A stretch of 58,083 bases of DNA, taken from positions 1 through 58,083 of IMG/VR virus record IMGVR_UViG_3300046355_000105; one strand, given 5' to 3'. The notes beneath the pieces were generated by a model. That model saw only the letters and a program-made list of their open reading frames with translations. It did not search any database and was not told the origin of the DNA. This document shows positions 12,845 through 33,215 of this stretch, piece after piece (within the stretch, counting starts at the first letter, position 1; each line of letters opens with the position of its first letter). The position numbers were made by a program, and so were the translations under genes. The DNA is from a virus (lineage: Duplodnaviria > Caudoviricetes).

Positions 12845-14206
12845 ATGGCATACCTAGGAAACTCCCCCGGCGTCGCGTCGCAGCGTGTTGAGAGCGCGTT
12901 TACGGCGACATCAAGCCAAACAGTTTTCACACCATCGAGCGGCTACACGCTCGGGTACTGCGACGTGTATCAGAACGGTGTCAAGCTCGTCAACGGCGAC
13001 GACTACACAGCAGCAGACGGCGCAACAGTCACGCTCACCACAGGCGCAGCTACAGGCGACTCCATCGTCATCGTGGCATCGTTCCCACGCGGCTTGTCCG
13101 ACGGCTACCTCAAGAGCGAAGCTGATGCGAAGTATGCTCCGATTGCTGCGCCCACATTTACTGGTGTTGCCACATTTTCCAAAGGCTCCAGCAGTGGCGT
13201 CACGATTGGTGATGTAACCACAAACAGCAACTCTGTTCTGCGTATGCAGGGCACAAGCGCGGGCAAGAACTGGCAAATCGCTAACAACTTGAACGTGGCA
13301 GGTATTGAGTTCACGCCTTCAACCGCTGACGGCGGGACAACTTACACAACCCCAACAGTGACATTTTTGTCTAGTGGTAGCGTAGGTATCGGTACAAGTT
13401 CGCCTACAGCAAAGTTGCAAGTTTACGCAACCACTGGTGAATACATACGAGCTGGAGGTAAAAGCAGTGCAGCGGTTTCGTCCGACATAACCATTAGCCG
13501 AACAAGTTCTACGACAGGCATTGTGCAGGCTCCAAACTTGTACTTTGATGATGGCACCACAAACAACACACGCGCCATTCAATGCGGGCAAGGCAACCAA
13601 CAGTTCTGGGCTTACCGTAACGGCTGGATTGAAGATATGCGTATCGACTCCAGCGGTAACTTGCTGGTGGGGACTACAAGTTCAACAGCAAAGTTAACTG
13701 TGAGTAGTGCAGCAAATGCAAACGGCGTAGCGTATTTAGCATCATCTTCAGTATCTGATTTATCAAATCCAGCTTTGATACTTTCAAAATACGATAACAA
13801 CTCAACCACAAGTCAAGTTCTTGTCCGATTCATCATTGCTAACGGAAACACTGCCCAAGGTCAAATCAATGCAAACGGTGCTGCTTCAGCCGCTTTTGGC
13901 GCATGGTCTGACCAGCGATTAAAAGAGAACATTATTGATTTACCTCCACAACTTGATAACATCATGGCACTACGCCCTGTTGAGTTTGATTACATTGAAT
14001 CAGAAGGTGGCGGTCATCAAATTGGTTTTATTGCTCAAGAGGTTCAGAACATTTACCCTGACTTGGTTGGTGAGCGTCAAGATGGTATGTTGACATTAAC
14101 AGACTTGAACAAGAACGATGCTCGTCTAATCAAAGCAATCCAAGAACAACAAGCGATAATCGAACAGCTGCAAGCTGACGTAGCAACATTGAAAGGCACA
14201 CCATGA
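12845..14206 (+). CDS. second tail fibre with C-terminal intramolecular chaperone (peptidase S74)
   Basis: MAYLGNSP start, GSVGIGTSSP repeat, SDQRLKENI site, IGFIAQEVQNIYPDLV, LIKAIQEQQ. Confidence 0.85.
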   Translation: MAYLGNSPGVASQRVESAFTATSSQTVFTPSSGYTLGYCDVYQNGVKLVNGDDYTAADGATVTLTTGAATGDSIVIVASFPRGLSDGYLKSEADAKYAPIAAPTFTGVATFSKGSSSGVTIGDVTTNSNSVLRMQGTSAGKNWQIANNLNVAGIEFTPSTADGGTTYTTPTVTFLSSGSVGIGTSSPTAKLQVYATTGEYIRAGGKSSAAVSSDITISRTSSTTGIVQAPNLYFDDGTTNNTRAIQCGQGNQQFWAYRNGWIEDMRIDSSGNLLVGTTSSTAKLTVSSAANANGVAYLASSSVSDLSNPALILSKYDNNSTTSQVLVRFIIANGNTAQGQINANGAASAAFGAWSDQRLKENIIDLPPQLDNIMALRPVEFDYIESEGGGHQIGFIAQEVQNIYPDLVGERQDGMLTLTDLNKNDARLIKAIQEQQAIIEQLQADVATLKGTP

Positions 14207-16678: not shown

Positions 16679-17147
16679 AGAATTTGAGACCCGCATCTGG
16701 GGCTTCGTCGTCATCGTTGTCACGCTGATTCTGGCTGGCATCGTGGCGTTCATGCTCTATAGCTTGGCGTTCGTGGTTCAGCCGCTCAAGTCCATGGCTC
16801 CTATGGACCAAGCCTTTGCCAAGATGCTCAATGACATCGTCCTGCTCGTCGTGGGCGGTATTGGTGGTGTGATGAGCCGCAAGGGCGTCCAAGCTGTCGC
16901 AGAGAAGATGGCAGCCTCACAGGTGACTCCACCCCCACAGCCCCAAGCCGTAGCGCCTAGCGTAGCCCCTGCGCCTGCGGCTTCCACTGGGGGCATGTTC
17001 GACTTCAACTTCGGCGGGTTCAAAAACCCTGAGCTCGACGAAGAGTGGCGTGCGCCACCTCCACCCACAACACCACCCAACTTTGTTGACCCTGCCGTCG
17101 AGGACATCGCCCATGAACGAGCAGCAGCAAAACTGGAGGCAGCATGA
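16629..17147 (+). CDS. two-TM membrane protein (holin candidate)
   Basis: Two hydrophobic helices and a Pro-rich C-terminal tail, directly upstream of Rz. Confidence 0.55.
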   Translation: MFNKHKHQHQQPRLTAEEFETRIWGFVVIVVTLILAGIVAFMLYSLAFVVQPLKSMAPMDQAFAKMLNDIVLLVVGGIGGVMSRKGVQAVAEKMAASQVTPPPQPQAVAPSVAPAPAASTGGMFDFNFGGFKNPELDEEWRAPPPPTTPPNFVDPAVEDIAHERAAAKLEAA

Positions 17148-17605
17148 TGCCAAGCCCTTGGATGATTCTGGGGGCCCTAAGTGTTTGCATAACTGCATAC
17201 TTCTACGGCCACCATGCAGGTTTTGTGGAGCGAGACCAAGAGATGCAGGCGGAGATTGCCTCCAAGAACGAGCAGATTCGCCAGACCGAACACAAGCTGA
17301 GTGAACAACTCAGCGCCACCTCAACCGAACTGAAGGACGCAAACGATGCCGTCGCTAAAAAACAGTCTGACCTTGATCGCCTTATCAATGCTGGCCGGGT
17401 GCGCCTCCCCTCCGCAGGTTGCGTACAAGCCGCTGCAGGTTCCACCGCTCCCAGCGGGAATCAACAAGCAGGAAGCGAATCTGACATCGAGACTCTCCGA
17501 CTTATTGCTCAAATCGCAGCCGACGGCGACCGCGCCATCAACCAGCTCAACGCCTGCATTACAGCCTACGAACAAGTAAGGGAGGCCGCCAATGGTCAAC
17601 GCTGA
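17144..17605 (+). CDS. Rz: i-spanin (Rz-like)
   Basis: N-terminal TM, periplasmic coiled coil, ADGDRAINQLNACITAY C-terminus. Confidence 0.8.
   Translation: MMPSPWMILGALSVCITAYFYGHHAGFVERDQEMQAEIASKNEQIRQTEHKLSEQLSATSTELKDANDAVAKKQSDLDRLINAGRVRLPSAGCVQAAAGSTAPSGNQQAGSESDIETLRLIAQIAADGDRAINQLNACITAYEQVREAANGQR
17346..17579 (+). CDS. Rz1: o-spanin (Rz1-like) lipoprotein embedded in Rz
   Basis: +1 frame entirely inside Rz; lipobox LAG-C; Pro-rich mature region; AAGGA upstream. Confidence 0.8.
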   Translation: MPSLKNSLTLIALSMLAGCASPPQVAYKPLQVPPLPAGINKQEANLTSRLSDLLLKSQPTATAPSTSSTPALQPTNK

Positions 17606-18206
17606 ACAACTGCACTCCATGCACATCGACCACAAGTGGGTCGAGCCGCTAAATGAAACCTTTGCTCGTTTCAACATCAACACACCTCGCCAGCAGGCTG
17701 CGTTCATCGCGCAGTGCGGCCATGAGTGCGGCAACTTCCGCATCTTGGAAGAGAACCTGAACTACCGTGCTGAGACTTTGATGAAGCTGTGGCCCAAGCG
17801 CTTCCCCACCATGGAGTTCGCCAAGCAGTTCGAGAAAAACCCGAAGAAAATCGCCAACAGCGTCTACGCTTCCCGCATGGGGAACCGTGATGAAGCGTCG
17901 GGTGACGGCCACCGTTTCCGTGGGCGCGGGTGCATCCAGTTGACTGGGCACAGCTCGTATTACCACGCTGGCCAAGCCCTCGGCGTTGACTTCGTGATGA
18001 ACCCTGACCTCGTGGCCACGCCCAAGTACGCTGTACTGACGGCTGGCTGGTTCTGGAGCATGCACGGCTGCAACGATTTGGCCGAAGCTGGCAACTGGGT
18101 GGGCCTCACCAAACGCATCAACGGTGGCACCATCGGCCTAGATGACCGCGTGAAGCACACAACGCTAGCCCTATCGGTGATTGACACTGGCACAGCACTG
18201 GCCTGA
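17592..18206 (+). CDS. endolysin, glycoside hydrolase family 19
   Basis: AAFIAQCGHEC, FRGRGCIQLTG, TKRINGGTIGLDDR GH19 motifs. Confidence 0.92.
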   Translation: MVNAEQLHSMHIDHKWVEPLNETFARFNINTPRQQAAFIAQCGHECGNFRILEENLNYRAETLMKLWPKRFPTMEFAKQFEKNPKKIANSVYASRMGNRDEASGDGHRFRGRGCIQLTGHSSYYHAGQALGVDFVMNPDLVATPKYAVLTAGWFWSMHGCNDLAEAGNWVGLTKRINGGTIGLDDRVKHTTLALSVIDTGTALA

Positions 18207-18244: not shown

Positions 18245-19864
18245 ATGGCAGTCATTCAACTAAAGTCCTTCGGTGGTATCTCGCCGAAGGTTTCCCCCCG
18301 TCTCTTGGCTGATAATCAGGCGCAGGTGGCGTTGAATTGCGCTGTCTTCTCGGGCACCATCATTCCTCTACCCGGGCTTGGCACGTCTGCTGCCACGCTG
18401 ACCAAAACCGGCACACCCAAGACGATCTATCGGTTCGGCCAAGACATCATCTCAGACGCGAATTACTGGTTCCACTGGACGACCGACGTTGACGTGGCCC
18501 GTAGCCAGATTGCTGGTGACACCTCTGAGTGGACGTTCTACACCGATGGCGTGCTACCCAAGGCCACCTACAACACGCTGGCGCTATCTGGCTCAGATTA
18601 CCCCACGGTGTCACGCCCGCTGGGCTTGCCAGCACCCACTTCTGCTTGCTCGGTGTCCGCCGGTACTGCGCCTGTAGGCTCAACCGCCACGCCTGAGACT
18701 CGCAACTACACCTACACCATGGTGTCTAAAGAATCTGGGTTCGAGTTCGAGTCGGCACCTGCTGCCGCGTCGCTGGATGTCGATGTTGTGCCTGAGCAGC
18801 CTGTGACGGTCGGCTCGTTTGCGTCTGTCCCGTCTGGGTACAACGTCACACACCGCCGCATCTACCGCGCCACCGCAGGCACCTACCTGTTTGTGGCCGA
18901 GATTACTTCTGCGACCTCCAGCTACGTTGACACCAAACTCGCAGAAGACCTAGGCGAAGAACTCCCTAGCCTGACGTGGCTGCAGCCCCCTGCTGAACTC
19001 AAGGGGCTAATCAACTTGCCCGGTGGCATCATGGCTGGCTTTAAGGGTCGTGACGTTTATTTCTGTGACCCGTATCACCCACACGCATGGCCCGCGCAGT
19101 ATCAGCAGTCGCTGGACTACCCTGTCGTTGGCCTTGGCCGCATGGACACAACACTGGCAGTGCTGACTACAGGAAGCCCATACATAATCCAAGGTAGCCA
19201 CCCAGACTCGATGACTGTGGTGAAGTCTGACCTTGAGCAGTCGTGTGTGGCCAAGCGCAGCATCGTCAGCTTCAACGGTGCAGTCATCTACGCCAGCCCA
19301 GACGGCCTCGTGATGTTGTCACCTAGTGGCTCCAAAGTAATCACCGAGCAGTATTTCATCCGCGCACAGTGGCAGGCGCTGTTCAAGCCCGACTCGATTC
19401 ATGCGTATCAGCATGACCTCAAGTACATCGGCTTCTACGACAACGGCGTAACCCAAGGTGGCTTCATCTACGACACAACTTCTGGTGTGTTCACGTTGCA
19501 CGACATCTACGCGACCGCTGGGTACAACGACTTGCAAAACGACAAGCTGTTCGTCACCTCTGCAGACAAGACTGTGAAGCCTTGGCTCGAAGGCACAGCT
19601 AAATCGTTCACGTGGAAGTCGAAGAAATTCACGTTCCCTAAACCACTGAGCATGGCGTGCGCACAGCTGGAGGCCGAGGCGTACCCAGTGACGGTCAAGT
19701 TCTACGTTGACGGCACCCTCGCGTACACGCACACCGCTGCTGACCGCTCACCCTTCCGCCTCGCCGCCGTGACTGGCCGTGACTGGGAAGTGCAGGTCGA
19801 AGGTAACACTGAGGTGTTTGGTTTCGCCATGGCGCAGAACATGATGGAGTTGAGCGATGTCTAA
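18245..19864 (+). CDS. tail nozzle / tubular protein B (stabilisation protein-like)
   Basis: FGGISPKVSPRLL N-terminus, beta-propeller-like body, WKSKKF near the C-terminus. Confidence 0.7.
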   Translation: MAVIQLKSFGGISPKVSPRLLADNQAQVALNCAVFSGTIIPLPGLGTSAATLTKTGTPKTIYRFGQDIISDANYWFHWTTDVDVARSQIAGDTSEWTFYTDGVLPKATYNTLALSGSDYPTVSRPLGLPAPTSACSVSAGTAPVGSTATPETRNYTYTMVSKESGFEFESAPAAASLDVDVVPEQPVTVGSFASVPSGYNVTHRRIYRATAGTYLFVAEITSATSSYVDTKLAEDLGEELPSLTWLQPPAELKGLINLPGGIMAGFKGRDVYFCDPYHPHAWPAQYQQSLDYPVVGLGRMDTTLAVLTTGSPYIIQGSHPDSMTVVKSDLEQSCVAKRSIVSFNGAVIYASPDGLVMLSPSGSKVITEQYFIRAQWQALFKPDSIHAYQHDLKYIGFYDNGVTQGGFIYDTTSGVFTLHDIYATAGYNDLQNDKLFVTSADKTVKPWLEGTAKSFTWKSKKFTFPKPLSMACAQLEAEAYPVTVKFYVDGTLAYTHTAADRSPFRLAAVTGRDWEVQVEGNTEVFGFAMAQNMMELSDV

Positions 19865-21961: not shown

Positions 21962-21975
21962 CCCATAATCACCAC

Positions 21976-22392
21976 ATGGACACACTCGTACTTGACCAAA
22001 AAGAAGCTATCGGCGCGTGGGTCGCCGATCAAGTAGGCCAGACCTGTGATTGGGGCAGCTTCTACGCCCTTGGCATCATGCGCGACGGAGAGATCATTGC
22101 CGGTGTGGTGTTCAACAACTACAACAGGGCCAACGCCACAGCCCACATTGCCATAGCCCGCCAGACTCGGATGGTTCACAAGATGATTGAGGCGTCGTTT
22201 GACTACGCGTTTAACTTCTGCAAACTCAAAAGATTAACTGGCATGGTTCCATCAAATGAGCCTAAAATACTGGCATTTGACAAACATATCGGCTTTGAAG
22301 AAGAGTTCGTTATGAAAGACGGCGCACCCGGCGCTGACATGCACGTTTTGGTTATGTGGCCCGACAAGTGTCGATGGCTACGCAAGGAGTAA
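21976..22392 (+). CDS. GNAT-fold N-acyltransferase-like protein
   Basis: FDYAFNFCKLKRLTGMV..N...LAFDKHIGFEEE RimJ/RimL-type motif; position equivalent to P22 gp14 / T7 gp13, before the ejection genes. Confidence 0.8.
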   Translation: MDTLVLDQKEAIGAWVADQVGQTCDWGSFYALGIMRDGEIIAGVVFNNYNRANATAHIAIARQTRMVHKMIEASFDYAFNFCKLKRLTGMVPSNEPKILAFDKHIGFEEEFVMKDGAPGADMHVLVMWPDKCRWLRKE

Positions 22393-22395
22393 TTC

Positions 22396-23184
22396 ATGGG
22401 CGGAAAATCAGCACCAGCACCAGACTATAGCCAGATGGCCGCTGCCAACCAATATGCTGCTCAGGTGTCTGAGCGCCTAGGCAATCGACAAATGGATATG
22501 GCGCAGCAGCAGTACAACGAGATGAAGCCCCTAGCGGAGCGTATCGCTGCCCAACAGATGGCTGCGCAAGAGCAGCAGATGGCGCAAGCGCAAGACTACT
22601 ACGACTACCAGAAGGGCACGTTCCGCCCTGTGGAGCAAGGTCTAGTGCGTGACGCTGAAAATTTCAGCACCGCTGGGTATCGTGAACAACTTGCCCGTGA
22701 CGCTGCTGCTGCCTCTGCGCAAGCGTTTGGCCAAACACAAGCCATGGCTTCCCGCGCAGCCGCCGCACGCGGCATCAACATGAACTCTGGTGCTGGCCTC
22801 GCCATGCAGAATCAGAACATGCTCGGCTTGTCCGCACAACGCGCTCAAGCAATGACAGGCGCACGCACTCAGGCTGAACAAACTGGCTGGGCCCGCCGCA
22901 TGGACGTTACCGGCCTCGGCCGCAACCTTGCTGGCGCTTCTACTGCTGCTTACCAAGGTGCTACTGGCGCTGGCACATCTGGCTTGAACACATCTATGGC
23001 ACCGGGCAACGCTCTCGCGCAGCAGTATGGCCAAGGTGTTGGAACCATGATGACTGGTGCTCAACTCGGCGTACAGGGTGCTGGTACTGCGCTCAACGCG
23101 CAAGTCAGCCAGTCCAACGCTGCTATGAACGCACAGGGCCAGATGTACGGCGCAGTTCTCGGCGCAGGCGCTGTCGCTGTATGA
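22396..23184 (+). CDS. ejection/pilot protein
   Basis: MGGKSAPAPDY start; A/Q/G-rich helical body; Gly-rich hydrophobic C-terminus. Confidence 0.65.
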   Translation: MGGKSAPAPDYSQMAAANQYAAQVSERLGNRQMDMAQQQYNEMKPLAERIAAQQMAAQEQQMAQAQDYYDYQKGTFRPVEQGLVRDAENFSTAGYREQLARDAAAASAQAFGQTQAMASRAAAARGINMNSGAGLAMQNQNMLGLSAQRAQAMTGARTQAEQTGWARRMDVTGLGRNLAGASTAAYQGATGAGTSGLNTSMAPGNALAQQYGQGVGTMMTGAQLGVQGAGTALNAQVSQSNAAMNAQGQMYGAVLGAGAVAV

Positions 23185-23900
23185 CGCAGCTAGACGACTT
23201 CAAAAAAGTCGCTCTTCAGTTCTCCGGCGGTAAAGATTCACTCGCGTGCCTTTACCTGCTGCGTGACCGCCTGCCTGAGATTACCGTCTACTGGCTCAAC
23301 ACTGGTGACGGATGCCCTGAGACCGTAGCCCTCGTGCAGCAGGTGCGCACTATGGTGCCCAACTTTGTTGAGATTACGACCGACGTGAAAGCGTGGCGCG
23401 AAAAGCACGGCCACCCGTCAGACCTAGTCCCAGCAAACTCGCACTACATCGGCAGCTACTACGGCCTCGATGGCCCAAGGCTGACCAATCGCTTTGACTG
23501 TTGCGCTGAGAACCTCATGCGCCCACTGCACGAGAAGATGATTGCTGACGGTGTGGACTGCGTGATTCGCGGCACGAAGAAATGTGACACAGGCACTGTG
23601 CCCGCCGAAGGCGACACTGGGCCATACCATGTGATTCTGCCCATCAAGGACTGGTCACACCAAGACGTATTTGATTTCCTCGCATCCGTAGACGCGCCAT
23701 ATAACCCGCTGTATGATTTCTACAAAGGCATCAGCGCTCCCGAGTGTTTTGGGTGTACCGCGTGGTGGGAAGACGGCAAGAGCGCGTATTTCAAGGCGTT
23801 GCACCCCGAGAAGCTGGGTGAATACCGTGCGAGTTTGGAAGAAATTAAGGCCGCGCTGCAGACGCATCTCGCGGACTTGGAATATGAATTAAGGAGCTGA
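23181..23900 (+). CDS. PAPS/APS-reductase-family PP-loop protein
   Basis: LQFSGGKDS PP-loop, LNTGD, FDCC, PIKDWS..DV, and C-terminal CFGC. Confidence 0.85.
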   Translation: MTQLDDFKKVALQFSGGKDSLACLYLLRDRLPEITVYWLNTGDGCPETVALVQQVRTMVPNFVEITTDVKAWREKHGHPSDLVPANSHYIGSYYGLDGPRLTNRFDCCAENLMRPLHEKMIADGVDCVIRGTKKCDTGTVPAEGDTGPYHVILPIKDWSHQDVFDFLASVDAPYNPLYDFYKGISAPECFGCTAWWEDGKSAYFKALHPEKLGEYRASLEEIKAALQTHLADLEYELRS

Positions 23901-23902
23901 TT

Positions 23903-25426
23903 ATGGGCTGGGCAGAAGGTTTAAACGCAGGTATCAACCTCGGCAATGTCATCAAGCAAGGCATGCTGCAGCAGGACTTGGCTGACGAAGCCAAAAAGTA
24001 TCGTGTGACTGAAGGTGCCTATGGCCCTGAGTTGCAACAGAACATCGAGCAGGTGCGTGCTTTGCAGGCTCAAAACCCTGAGCAAGCCGCGCAGTACGAG
24101 CCAGCAATCGCTGAACTCACACGCCGCCAAGGCTTGACTGCCCCTGACTACTCTTCAAGCAGCGGTGCTCAGAACTTTGGCACCATGCAAGAAGCCCAAC
24201 GCGCAGTAAACACGCAGCGCACAGCTGGCCTAGCCGATGTGTATCGTGGCTATGGCATGGAAGACAAGGCTAGCGAACTGCAATCGCGTGCTATGCAACA
24301 AGAGCTCACTGGTCTGCAGCTGCGCAAAGCTAACCGTGAAGACGACGCTGAGACCCGCTACGCTGGCTTCGGCGAGTTCGCCGCACAGAACCCAGACATG
24401 ACAGCTGCGCAGCTCAAAGAGGCAGCGCAAAAGCAGTTCAAGTTCACGCCTGAGCAGTGGGAAAAGGCTGTTACCACACGCCTTAATATTGACAAGGCCG
24501 ACCTCGACATGTTCAAGACTGGCATTGCTAAGAAGATGCAGGGCAAGAACTTGGCGCAGCTCGGCTCGCTCTACAACACAGACCCAGACTTTGACGACAA
24601 AACCGACTTGGCCATCGTGCCCGGCAAGGGCGGCGCAGTCACGCTCAACTTCGTTGACAAAGCCTCTAAACGCGTTACTGGCTCTCAGACCTTCAACAAC
24701 GAAGCCCTAGCTGTGGAGTATTTGCACACGCAAGCTAAACAACCTGAAGTCATGGGCACTTGGTTGCTCGGCATGCAGACCAAAGAACAGCAAATCGCTG
24801 CCTCGAAAGCCTCCGTCGGCGCAAGCGGCGCTGCGGCTGCTTTGTCCAATGAGCGCCTCGCAGGGCTTAAAGGCGAACGCGAGAACCGTAGTAAGGCTGG
24901 CGACATCGCTGCTGAATACGAAGGCTTGAGTGACATTGAGAAAGCTGGCCCCAAAGGGCTTGGCTTGGTTCGTCAGTTCAACATGGCAAACGCCAAAGCT
25001 GGTGGTCAAATCGCCCTCGGCGCTCAACCACGTGCTGGCCAGACCATGACTGACGTTGAGAAAGAAAACCTCCGCGCGTACCGTGACTGGGAGAAAGACG
25101 ACCGCAATGCACGTCTGCCACAGGCTGAGAAGGACAAGAAGGCCACCAGCATGGGTGTGTATAACTTCGTGAACCCATCGGCGAACGCGGTGCAGTCTGG
25201 TCTAGGTAGTAACCCGTACGCCAACACAGGTGGCAAAGCAGACCAAGGTAGCGGTAAGCAGCAAGGCATCCAAACGGCTGCACCTAAGCTAACTTCTATG
25301 AATACTCGCCTGTTGGGACGCGCTGGAAACATGGGCTATAACGTAGAATTGCCTGATGGCACAACTCGCGTTATGGAAAAGGACGAGCTTGAGGATTTAG
25401 GCTACCGATTCCCCGCCCCACGCTAA
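23903..25426 (+). CDS. internal virion / ejection protein
   Basis: A/Q/K-rich 507 aa between the pilot protein and the giant protein. Confidence 0.6.
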   Translation: MGWAEGLNAGINLGNVIKQGMLQQDLADEAKKYRVTEGAYGPELQQNIEQVRALQAQNPEQAAQYEPAIAELTRRQGLTAPDYSSSSGAQNFGTMQEAQRAVNTQRTAGLADVYRGYGMEDKASELQSRAMQQELTGLQLRKANREDDAETRYAGFGEFAAQNPDMTAAQLKEAAQKQFKFTPEQWEKAVTTRLNIDKADLDMFKTGIAKKMQGKNLAQLGSLYNTDPDFDDKTDLAIVPGKGGAVTLNFVDKASKRVTGSQTFNNEALAVEYLHTQAKQPEVMGTWLLGMQTKEQQIAASKASVGASGAAAALSNERLAGLKGERENRSKAGDIAAEYEGLSDIEKAGPKGLGLVRQFNMANAKAGGQIALGAQPRAGQTMTDVEKENLRAYRDWEKDDRNARLPQAEKDKKATSMGVYNFVNPSANAVQSGLGSNPYANTGGKADQGSGKQQGIQTAAPKLTSMNTRLLGRAGNMGYNVELPDGTTRVMEKDELEDLGYRFPAPR

Positions 25427-31609: not shown

Positions 31610-32059
31610 ATGGCTAATGGTAATTTACGGTACGAAGTGACGTGCCCTGTATGCGGTGAAAAAAGGCTGGCACGTTCTGACGTGATAGCTAAACTAAACG
31701 GCAAACCGCCGATTTGTAAAGGGTGTAATAACCGTGCGCGGTTCGCTGATCGTGACCACCCTAGAAAGGGTACTGGAGTTAAGCATGACCAGAGTATGTT
31801 GTATACACGCAGTAGCTACTACAAAGCCAAGCAACGCTGTAAGCTAGGCGCTGAGCATCATCTATGTTACGAGAAAGTGCAGTTTAACTTTAAATCTCTG
31901 CAACAGTTAGTGTCTTGCATAGGTACTAGACCGCAAGGTACTTCCCTCGATAGAATAGACCCGCTGGGTAACTATGAACCCGGTAACGTCCGTTGGGCGA
32001 CCCCACAACAGCAAGCATCCAATAGGTTGCCGCGTGGGTTTTGGAAAACTGTTACTTAG
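31610..32059 (+). CDS. HNH homing endonuclease
   Basis: CPVCG zinc knuckle, SLDRIDPLGNYEPGNVRWAT..QASN; visibly more AT-rich than its neighbours. Confidence 0.85.
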   Translation: MANGNLRYEVTCPVCGEKRLARSDVIAKLNGKPPICKGCNNRARFADRDHPRKGTGVKHDQSMLYTRSSYYKAKQRCKLGAEHHLCYEKVQFNFKSLQQLVSCIGTRPQGTSLDRIDPLGNYEPGNVRWATPQQQASNRLPRGFWKTVT

Positions 32060-32789: not shown

Positions 32790-33215
32790 TCAGTAGAGGC
32801 CCTCAAGGTTAGGGGCCTTGTAGTTGGGGCCCTTTGCGATTTTACCGTTGTCGTTGAAGATAGGGTTGCCGTTCTCGTCAAACTTGCTCCAGTTGGAGCG
32901 ATTCACCTCGGCGATACCTTCCGCTGTGCGCATGCCCGCGCAGTGCCCCGCACCCACAGCTGTGACCGTCTGGTCAGCCACGGCGTCGAGGAACTCTTTG
33001 CGGTCAATGATAGTAACGACCTCTTCGCCCGTCTTCAGGCGAGATGCCAGCAGCTTCATCTCGTAGCGCAGGTTGGCGTAGCCACCCTCAAACTTGAGTG
33101 CGTCCAGCATCTCGTTAATTTCCTCGAAGTGGCAGCCCAGCTGCACGGCGAAGTTTTCCCTCGTTGGCTCAGGGCGAGCGCGGCGGTGCCACAGCTCGAT
33201 TGAATCAATACTCAT
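32790..33215 (-). CDS. MazG-like NTP pyrophosphohydrolase
   Basis: EEINE, EFLDAVAD, EVNRSNWSK, GKIAKGPNY..P.L motifs. Confidence 0.8.
   Translation of the reverse strand: MSIDSIELWHRRARPEPTRENFAVQLGCHFEEINEMLDALKFEGGYANLRYEMKLLASRLKTGEEVVTIIDRKEFLDAVADQTVTAVGAGHCAGMRTAEGIAEVNRSNWSKFDENGNPIFNDNGKIAKGPNYKAPNLEGLY

Follow-up and report, generated by a model that had tools for sequence, protein, structure and literature searches.

In the phages Bcep22 (Lessievirus) and GP4 (Gervaisevirus), genes annotated as an acyl-CoA N-acyltransferase, a virion structural protein, a PAPS reductase, a second virion structural protein and a DarB-like giant protein lie in this order on one strand (gp69, gp70, gp73, gp74 and gp75, respectively, in Bcep22). 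The same order and strand were found in the window analysed here, which is the whole of the 58,083-bp virus record IMGVR_UViG_3300046355_000105 (rated 97% complete), where late genes encode a GNAT-fold protein, a virion structural protein (VP) and a PP-loop enzyme of the PAPS reductase family. The window enzyme is ~40% identical to its Bcep22 and GP4 counterparts and the GNAT-fold protein ~31%, and the VPs of these phages likewise have an ...APAPDP motif and a Gly/Ala tail. The window differs in that its giant protein, at 1954 amino acids (aa), has no recognisable DarB-type domains, and in that the Bcep22 VP carries a transmembrane-like leader.

Phage genes named PAPS reductase or cysH are among those most often reported as viral auxiliary metabolic genes (AMGs). 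Excerpts of the JC1 paper (PMC9144972) name the acetyltransferase and PAPS reductase genes of that phage 'moron genes' and suggest a role in sulfate reduction; in the virion mass spectrometry given there, the VP homologue gp64 is present and neither enzyme is among the virion proteins listed in those excerpts. The CSP3 paper, in the part consulted (PMC10269572), gives a similar account in terms of morons and sulfur metabolism, and a 2026 virome paper, again in excerpt (PMC13369170), defends the gene as 'a true AMG', a reading on which its ecological conclusions are built. A role for this enzyme in virion-protein maturation was not found proposed in the literature searched, a limited library without supplements.

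Comparison of the window with its relatives suggests, at roughly even confidence, that the two enzymes form a late-operon tailoring module for both ends of one virion protein, the VP, in a podophage that counts the Bcep22- and GP4-like phages among its relatives. The arrangement of the cassette is already known from annotation of those phages; the new handle is that the PP-loop enzyme alternates with a Peptidase_S74 (S74) domain at the C-terminal end of the VP.

The exchange can be seen against L063, the closest relative of the window, which lacks the enzyme and whose marker protein (the internal virion protein, Table 1) is 84% identical. DNA homology between the two extended over 21975-23174 at 79%, from the GNAT start to 10 nucleotides (nt) before the VP stop, was lost across the enzyme gene, and resumed at 23890 just before the next gene, with the same right-hand junction in L113. 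In place of the unmatched segment, L063 has 229 nt encoding an S74 domain fused to the VP, which runs on past the tail for 73 more residues (...GAALGAGAVYAK followed directly by SDRRLKEDI...). This extension matches the S74 'chaperone of endosialidase' family (PF13884, Pfam) from the serine onwards. S74 serves as an intramolecular chaperone: it brings about the folding of trimeric fibres and afterwards removes itself by cleavage ahead of that serine. Since the domain begins at the serine after the tail, the enzyme-less VP is predicted to mature to a Gly/Ala end of the same kind, and the window VP stops within one or two residues of the predicted cleavage site (before SD.R.K). S74 was detected in 28 of 48 enzyme-less VPs from IMG/VR and in five of six from phage records (Skulduggery, PEp14, Itty13, SopranoGao and POI1126, with none in RHph_TM3_14A); the corresponding counts for VPs accompanied by the enzyme were 0/38 in IMG/VR and 0/3 for the window, Bcep22 and GP4. 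A tail fibre of the window (12845-14206) bears S74 (E 2.8e-17, residues 355-408), so this phage uses the domain on a fibre but not on its VP. A lysine ahead of the S74 serine, neutralising the new C-terminus, was also considered and rejected, as the residue at this position is mostly G, F or S and is K/R in only 4 of 29.

Two samples were used to follow the enzyme and the tail across relatives. The enzyme-profile sample comprised 53 IMG/VR loci together with Bcep22, GP4 and the window (n=56). A VP-like open reading frame (ORF) stood directly upstream of the enzyme in these loci, L048 and L056 (described below) differing, and all 37 distinct VPs ended in a Gly/Ala tail, a count that leaves out the wrongly picked ORFs of L015, L019 and L023, and L030, which gave none. 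A GNAT gene lay upstream on the same strand in 48/56; at the GNAT-less loci L024, L027 and L047 a tail-bearing Q/A/G-rich protein was still encoded just upstream of the enzyme, within a structural module. In bacterial genomes (27 loci from Comamonadaceae, Rhodospirillales and others, 25 of them evaluable), a tail-bearing ORF was directly upstream of the enzyme in 24, many of these loci having no GNAT gene. A tblastn search with the enzyme matched 43 phage records (31 Ralstonia, 10 Burkholderia and 2 others) at ~40% identity.

The marker-based sample was chosen without regard to the enzyme, by retrieving 80 loci via the internal virion protein, and most of the nearest relatives of the window in it lack the enzyme. 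Among the 49 complete VPs with enough downstream DNA to be scored, 46 had another ending and no enzyme, two combined the enzyme with a Gly/Ala tail, and one (L140) had the tail without the enzyme. For the marker protein, a maximum-likelihood tree was computed on 74 rows taken from the two samples and the phage records together. Of these rows, 71 were scored for both traits: 46 had neither, 24 had enzyme and tail, one had the tail alone and none had the enzyme alone, giving a Gly/Ala tail in 24/24 rows with the enzyme versus 1/47 without. Enzyme presence changed at least 7 times on this tree, 6 of the changes being forced by well-supported branches, and the window itself falls in a fully supported four-member clade in which two loci have the enzyme and two do not. 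Across 6 phylogenetically independent pairs differing in the enzyme, the tail went with it in a mean of 5.9 (median sign-test p 0.031).

The VP begins MGGKS (MGGKSAPAPDY...) and ends abruptly in GAVLGAGAVAV, as a preliminary description of this DNA had read it, and its C-terminus is thus an uncharged, hydrophobic Gly/Ala tail; 'pilot protein', the name used in that description, is a presumptive one. Because the VP sequence is of low complexity, tblastn against phage records returned only four weak N-terminal matches, and homologues were instead found by profile hidden Markov models. The VPs share a conserved motif, G-G-K-(S/G)...[AT]P.(A)PD[PY], which directly follows the initiator Met in the window and in many other VPs. 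Upstream of the VP, the GNAT assignment was borne out by a phrog_4470 match (2.5e-31) and by a GNAT fold in the AlphaFold2 (AF2) model, which had a predicted local distance difference test score (pLDDT) of 90 and, by Foldseek, template modelling (TM) scores of ~0.7 to SpeG, RimI and many other small N-acetyltransferases; a Pfam scan of the protein gave zero matches, GNAT models included. In the marker-based sample, a short VP start of the MG type was found by rule in 35/43 GNAT-positive loci (38 by eye, the 3 extra reading MGGK) versus 1/14 GNAT-negative loci, and both GNAT and the N-terminal motif are retained in six phages that lack the enzyme. Taken together, these observations indicate that GNAT goes with the N-terminal end of the VP and the PP-loop enzyme with the C-terminal end, the two being distributed independently. 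A lasso-like ring joining Gly1 to the conserved Asp was considered and rejected, as the Gly-Asp distance ranges from 9 to 13 and the motif tracks GNAT.

Several features of the VP ends were seen in passing. One clade (L011, L013, L014, L016, L025, L044, L053 and L102) has a conserved leader of 25-35 aa, M.RWH.TEFD.LPE.AFRPR..GG, ahead of the GGK/TPAPDP motif, and another (L027 and L047) has F..L.DPWA.HP..NR.IC followed by poly-Gly. In the enzyme-less L057-L061 (Skulduggery gp26, PEp14 gp25, Itty13 gp05 and SopranoGao gp08), the gene in the slot of the enzyme encodes a protein that opens with a Gly/Ala-rich hydrophobic segment, e.g. MAGLGAFLQGAAGGMA. The virion protein encoded after that slot also opens with such a segment in all these phages, the 507-aa protein of the window included.

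The enzyme was correctly placed in the PAPS reductase family by the preliminary description (PF01507, E 1.1e-14), with the SGGKDS PP-loop at residues 15-20, the CC pair at 107-108 and a C-terminal CxxC at 189-192, to which can be added RGTK at 130-133 and a long C-terminal helix at 209-238. In a 26-sequence alignment S15, G17-K18-D19-S20, RGTK, C107-C108 and C189/C192 were invariant. The family is large, comprising 546 clusters at 90% identity and, at 50% identity, 675 representatives at E <= 0.001, 103 of them reaching E <= 1e-30. Motifs were counted in 142 of the best 150 cluster representatives, those covering most of the domain: CxxC was present in 142/142, CC in 141/142, the S.G[KR]DS loop in 130/142 and a CC...CxxC spacing as in Fe-S APS reductases in 140/142, and the ECG[ILV]H motif was found in 0/142 and was likewise absent from the window enzyme. 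The ECG[IL]H motif bears the catalytic cysteine of sulfonucleotide reductases, CC...CxxC provides the Fe-S cluster ligands in APS reductases, and an intact PP-loop is kept by the ATP-consuming members of the superfamily and lost in CysH. The four-cysteine, APS-reductase-like site of the window enzyme probably holds a 4Fe-4S cluster.

None of the NCBIfam models came near its curated cut-off. The enzyme scored 41 bits against the NCBIfam CysH model NF002537 (cut-off 154), 28 against TIGR00434 (cut-off 165), 29 against the PAPS reductase model TIGR02057 (cut-off 254), 34 against the APS reductase model TIGR02055 (cut-off 235), although the CC...CxxC cysteines are present and invariant, the catalytic Cys being absent, and 18.8 against the DndC model TIGR03183 (cut-off 290.4); Dnd or Ssp partners were not found among the 52 window ORFs scanned against PHROGs. 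It thus has the PAPS_reduct fold of CysH without its catalytic motif or a qualifying score, and it has the SGGxDS pyrophosphate loop after the first strand that marks the PP-loop ATP pyrophosphatases. Judged by motifs and model scores, the enzyme is not CysH and not DndC, and it is unlikely to be an APS reductase. Its AF2 model (pLDDT 92) was closest by Foldseek to PAPS and APS reductases (E ~1e-7, TM 0.5-0.6, identity 18-20%) and FAD synthase, then to GMP synthetase, TtuA, LarE and NcsA, with TM ~0.45-0.6 and identity 14-20% overall. The best sequence match of the family profile in the PDB was Cap9 (E 7.7e-6), whereas the fold search favours the PAPS reductases. A class-I S-adenosylmethionine (SAM) methyltransferase domain is fused to the enzyme in 24 of the 150 best representatives, N-terminally in 21 and C-terminally in 3; in one example, L004, the enzyme domain is 89% identical to that of the window. 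The window enzyme has no such domain, and a stand-alone methyltransferase was sought across the window and none was found. Fusion on either side argues that both activities share one substrate.

In the favoured reading, the PP-loop enzyme would be an ATP-using adenylating enzyme of PAPS reductase fold that acts, before assembly, on the Gly/Ala-rich C-terminal tail of the VP. The most likely chemistry would be adenylation of the terminal carboxylate (or of a tail carbonyl) followed by sulfur or nitrogen substitution, with amidation, a thiocarboxylate, a methylated derivative or ligation as candidate outcomes, and the methyltransferase-fused relatives would add SAM-dependent methylation. GNAT would be a separate, independently distributed partner that probably acylates the MG(G/K)K...AP.APD(Y/P) end of the VP. 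What was observed is the order of the genes, their motifs and folds, their joint distribution and the junction of the swap; from these we infer the VP to be the substrate, and likewise infer the modified atom and the product. The preliminary description had proposed such a two-enzyme tailoring system in place of sulfur assimilation, and had named homologues in random contexts or nested within CysH as signs to the contrary. Adjacency to the VP instead recurs and the CysH models score far below their cut-offs; the co-occurrence of GNAT with the N-terminus and of the enzyme with the C-terminal tail, and the exchange of the enzyme for S74, likewise speak for the proposal, whereas its N-terminal Gly fares less well, as in many relatives a leader precedes it. 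The other possibility raised there, that the enzyme acts on packaged DNA, gained no support.

Several observations weigh against this two-ended tailoring of the VP. Support for it is comparative throughout, drawn from sequence, and we know of no PAPS-reductase-family PP-loop enzyme that acts on a protein. A single recombination could move the VP 3' end together with the neighbouring enzyme gene, so that the 6 'independent' pairs may reflect the trading of two ancient alleles and not co-evolution that happened repeatedly. S74 is both a folding chaperone and a protease, so its replacement leaves the activity of the enzyme unspecified, and 20 of the 48 enzyme-less IMG/VR VPs have no S74 match, some clearly having other C-terminal domains. 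L140 has the Gly/Ala tail without the enzyme, and the enzyme-less L064, L065, L082 and L090 have short VPs without S74 whose Gly-rich tails are capped by lysines (e.g. ...GGGFGGAGKKGP), which is a third way to end the VP. At the other end, many VP relatives have a leader of 25-60 aa, RWH-type or transmembrane (transmembrane-like in Bcep22, PEp14 and SopranoGao), before GGK, which places the Gly away from the N-terminus in those proteins; GNAT sequences have diverged strongly, an alignment of 24 having only 2 invariant columns, and the R/Q-x-x-G-x-G/A loop, the canonical acyl-CoA pyrophosphate-binding loop of GNATs, is not evident in this divergent alignment. A complex prediction for the enzyme with full-length VP scored 0.00 with an uncertain partner fold and weighs neither way.

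The swap junctions are sharp within otherwise 70-79% identical DNA, as is typical of allelic cassette exchange, and the slot after the VP Gly/Ala segment might be a recombination hot spot that takes up S74 or unrelated cargo, the enzyme serving phage or host in some other way and its association with the tail being one of cassette inheritance. The VPs of L064, L065, L082, L090 and L140, which need neither S74 nor the enzyme, would fit such linkage without function, as would the treatment of the gene as a moron in the JC1 excerpts (PMC9144972). We consider this account unlikely, though not to be dismissed, because the enzyme stands beside a tail-bearing VP in very divergent lineages (identity down to ~35%, differing leaders, with or without GNAT), because the VP stop coincides with the S74 cleavage position, and because the VP and enzyme genes are translationally coupled. 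Modification of DNA or nucleotides, DndC/SspD-like or other, would place the enzyme in a late anti-restriction block with the DarB-like giant, marking progeny DNA. DndC also has a PP-loop and Fe-S cysteines, an anti-restriction giant of DarB type is encoded just downstream in relatives, and methyltransferase fusions occur; the low DndC score and the missing Dnd/Ssp partners described above speak against it, the fused methyltransferases match Methyltransf_11/25/23 and UbiE-type models with DNA methylase models not among the matches listed, and the tie to the VP tail and the S74 swap would be left unexplained, which together leave this reading little more than a slim chance.

A purely structural role can also be envisaged, in which the protein retains an enzyme fold and acts non-catalytically as a folding or assembly chaperone for the VP in trans, replacing S74 in cis. 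Trans-acting chaperones are often encoded directly downstream of fibre-like proteins, as the enzyme gene is here, the enzyme stands in for a chaperone domain, and its long C-terminal helix would suit such a role; we give this a slim chance, given that hundreds of relatives show little or no variation in the PP-loop, RGTK, CC and CxxC and that recurrent methyltransferase fusions argue for chemistry. Phage records and virome papers routinely annotate the gene as a CysH-type PAPS/APS reductase, an AMG that would boost host sulfate assimilation, and this reading draws on the PF01507 match and on PAPS and APS reductases being the best folds. It is the least likely of the alternatives and in our view very improbable: none of the 142 relatives has ECG[ILV]H, the PP-loop is intact, which ATP-consuming relatives typically show and CysH does not, every CysH and APS model scores far below cut-off, and the gene belongs to a late structural operon where its presence tracks the tail of a virion protein.

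The three ORFs of the cassette lie where the preliminary description had placed them (Table 1), and its account of their coupling was accurate. The enzyme start and the VP stop share an ATGA overlap, the next ATG follows 2 nt after the enzyme stop with AAGGAG within the last codons of the enzyme, and the VP ATG follows 3 nt after the GNAT stop, AAGGAG being present there too. The late operon is a single long rightward run with terminase, portal, major head protein, tail fibres, spanin, endolysin and internal virion protein; the cassette is far from recognisable DNA-metabolism genes, which begin at ~31.6 kb and are mostly on the opposite strand, as are the replication genes from ~33 kb. Megablast of the cassette region against phage records gave zero matches, the 507-aa protein had zero family matches in Pfam and PHROG scans, and the 1954-aa protein had zero Pfam or PHROG matches, with methylase, helicase and transglycosylase domains all undetected.

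Table 1. Features of the cassette and its surroundings in the window (positions in the 58,083-bp record)
Feature	Position	Strand	Basis or remark
Internal virion protein	18245..19864	+	phrog_511, E 3.4e-151; backbone marker for comparative sample and tree
GNAT-fold protein, 138 aa	21976..22392	+	phrog_4470 'acyl-CoA N-acyltransferase'; AF2 and Foldseek
Virion structural protein (VP), 262 aa, Q/A/G-rich	22396..23184	+	phrog_8003
Segment without counterpart in L063	23175..23889	+	blastn junctions 23174 / 23890
PAPS-reductase-family PP-loop enzyme, 239 aa	23181..23900	+	PF01507, phrog_424
Next late-operon protein, 507 aa, MGWAEGLNAG...	23903..25426	+	position of Bcep22 gp74 / GP4 gp69 'virion structural protein'
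Giant late protein, 1954 aa	25439..31303	+	stands where relatives encode their DarB-like giant virion protein

Other features of the locus and its relatives were recorded. The 1954-aa protein of the window stands where relatives have DarB-like giants of 4,500 aa. An Rz-like spanin (phrog_1327) and an endolysin (phrog_181) are encoded at 17144-18206, mid-way along the structural operon with the tail-fibre genes on one side and the internal virion protein on the other, and not at the late-operon end. An HNH endonuclease (phrog_3377/374) lies at that end (31610-32059), and a MazG-like nucleotide pyrophosphohydrolase is encoded on the opposite strand (32790-33215). Two distant homologues of the enzyme have other neighbours: at L048 (5326-6714) a methyltransferase-fused enzyme has upstream genes on the opposite strand and, downstream, a 710-aa protein with an endolysin-like domain, and at L056 (2104-2889) the homologue comes directly after a portal gene.

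For the subfamily as a whole, which is widespread (the 675 representatives given above), sequence and context argue against sulfate reduction and point towards virion-protein maturation. If the favoured reading is true, the PAPS reductase branch of the PP-loop enzymes would gain a protein-directed member beside Cap9 and QatC, and podophage entry machinery a post-translational step. A bolder extension, to which we assign a low probability, is that S74 in cis (by an ester intermediate) and the Fe-S PP-loop enzyme in trans (by adenylation) are interchangeable means by which a membrane-active needle or ejection protein has its C-terminal carbonyl activated. The adenylating route would then install a new kind of C-terminal modification (thiocarboxylate, amide or methylated derivative, for example) or ligate the tail to another molecule, GNAT would acylate the N-terminal Gly, and many virome 'cysH AMGs' would be virion-maturation genes. 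The GNAT-acylated N-terminal Gly would, if real, be to bacterial viruses what myristoylated entry peptides are to non-enveloped animal viruses.

Among known systems, APS reductase and CysH (2GOY from P. aeruginosa, 7LHR from M. tuberculosis and 1SUR from E. coli) share the PAPS_reduct fold with the window enzyme, whose CC...CxxC spacing is that of the Fe-S APS reductases and which differs from them all in having no C-terminal catalytic cysteine motif, in its intact ATP-type PP-loop and in an identity of 18-20%. The [4Fe-4S] PP-loop sulfur insertases TtuA, NcsA and LarE combine a PP-loop with a cysteine cluster and are among the fold matches of the enzyme; they are less similar to it in structure than the PAPS reductases, and they are known to act on tRNA or a cofactor precursor. 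TtuA also takes the C-terminal tail of TtuB into its active site (5GHA, by title). Peptidase_S74, as found in endosialidases and tail fibres, occupies the same position after the VP Gly/Ala segment, with a predicted cleavage site that matches the window VP stop; it is a self-cleaving folding domain in cis and not an ATP-dependent enzyme, and the window VP is without it. As excerpted, a preprint reports that Cap9 of type IV CBASS conjugates deazaguanine to Gly2 of CdnD (bioRxiv 10.1101/2025.04.06.647259), and excerpts of a second paper show the active site of QatC, from QatABCD, occupied by the Gly2 terminus of QatB (PMC13376578). Cap9 and QatC offer a recent precedent for PP-loop enzymes that take the terminus of a neighbouring protein as substrate. 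Those enzymes are QueC-like and belong to defence systems, whereas the window enzyme is PAPS_reduct by Pfam and sits in a structural operon, where it tracks a C-terminal tail and the Met-Gly start tracks GNAT; in both settings, a PP-loop ATP pyrophosphatase is encoded beside a protein that starts Met-Gly and whose flexible terminus is its likely second substrate.

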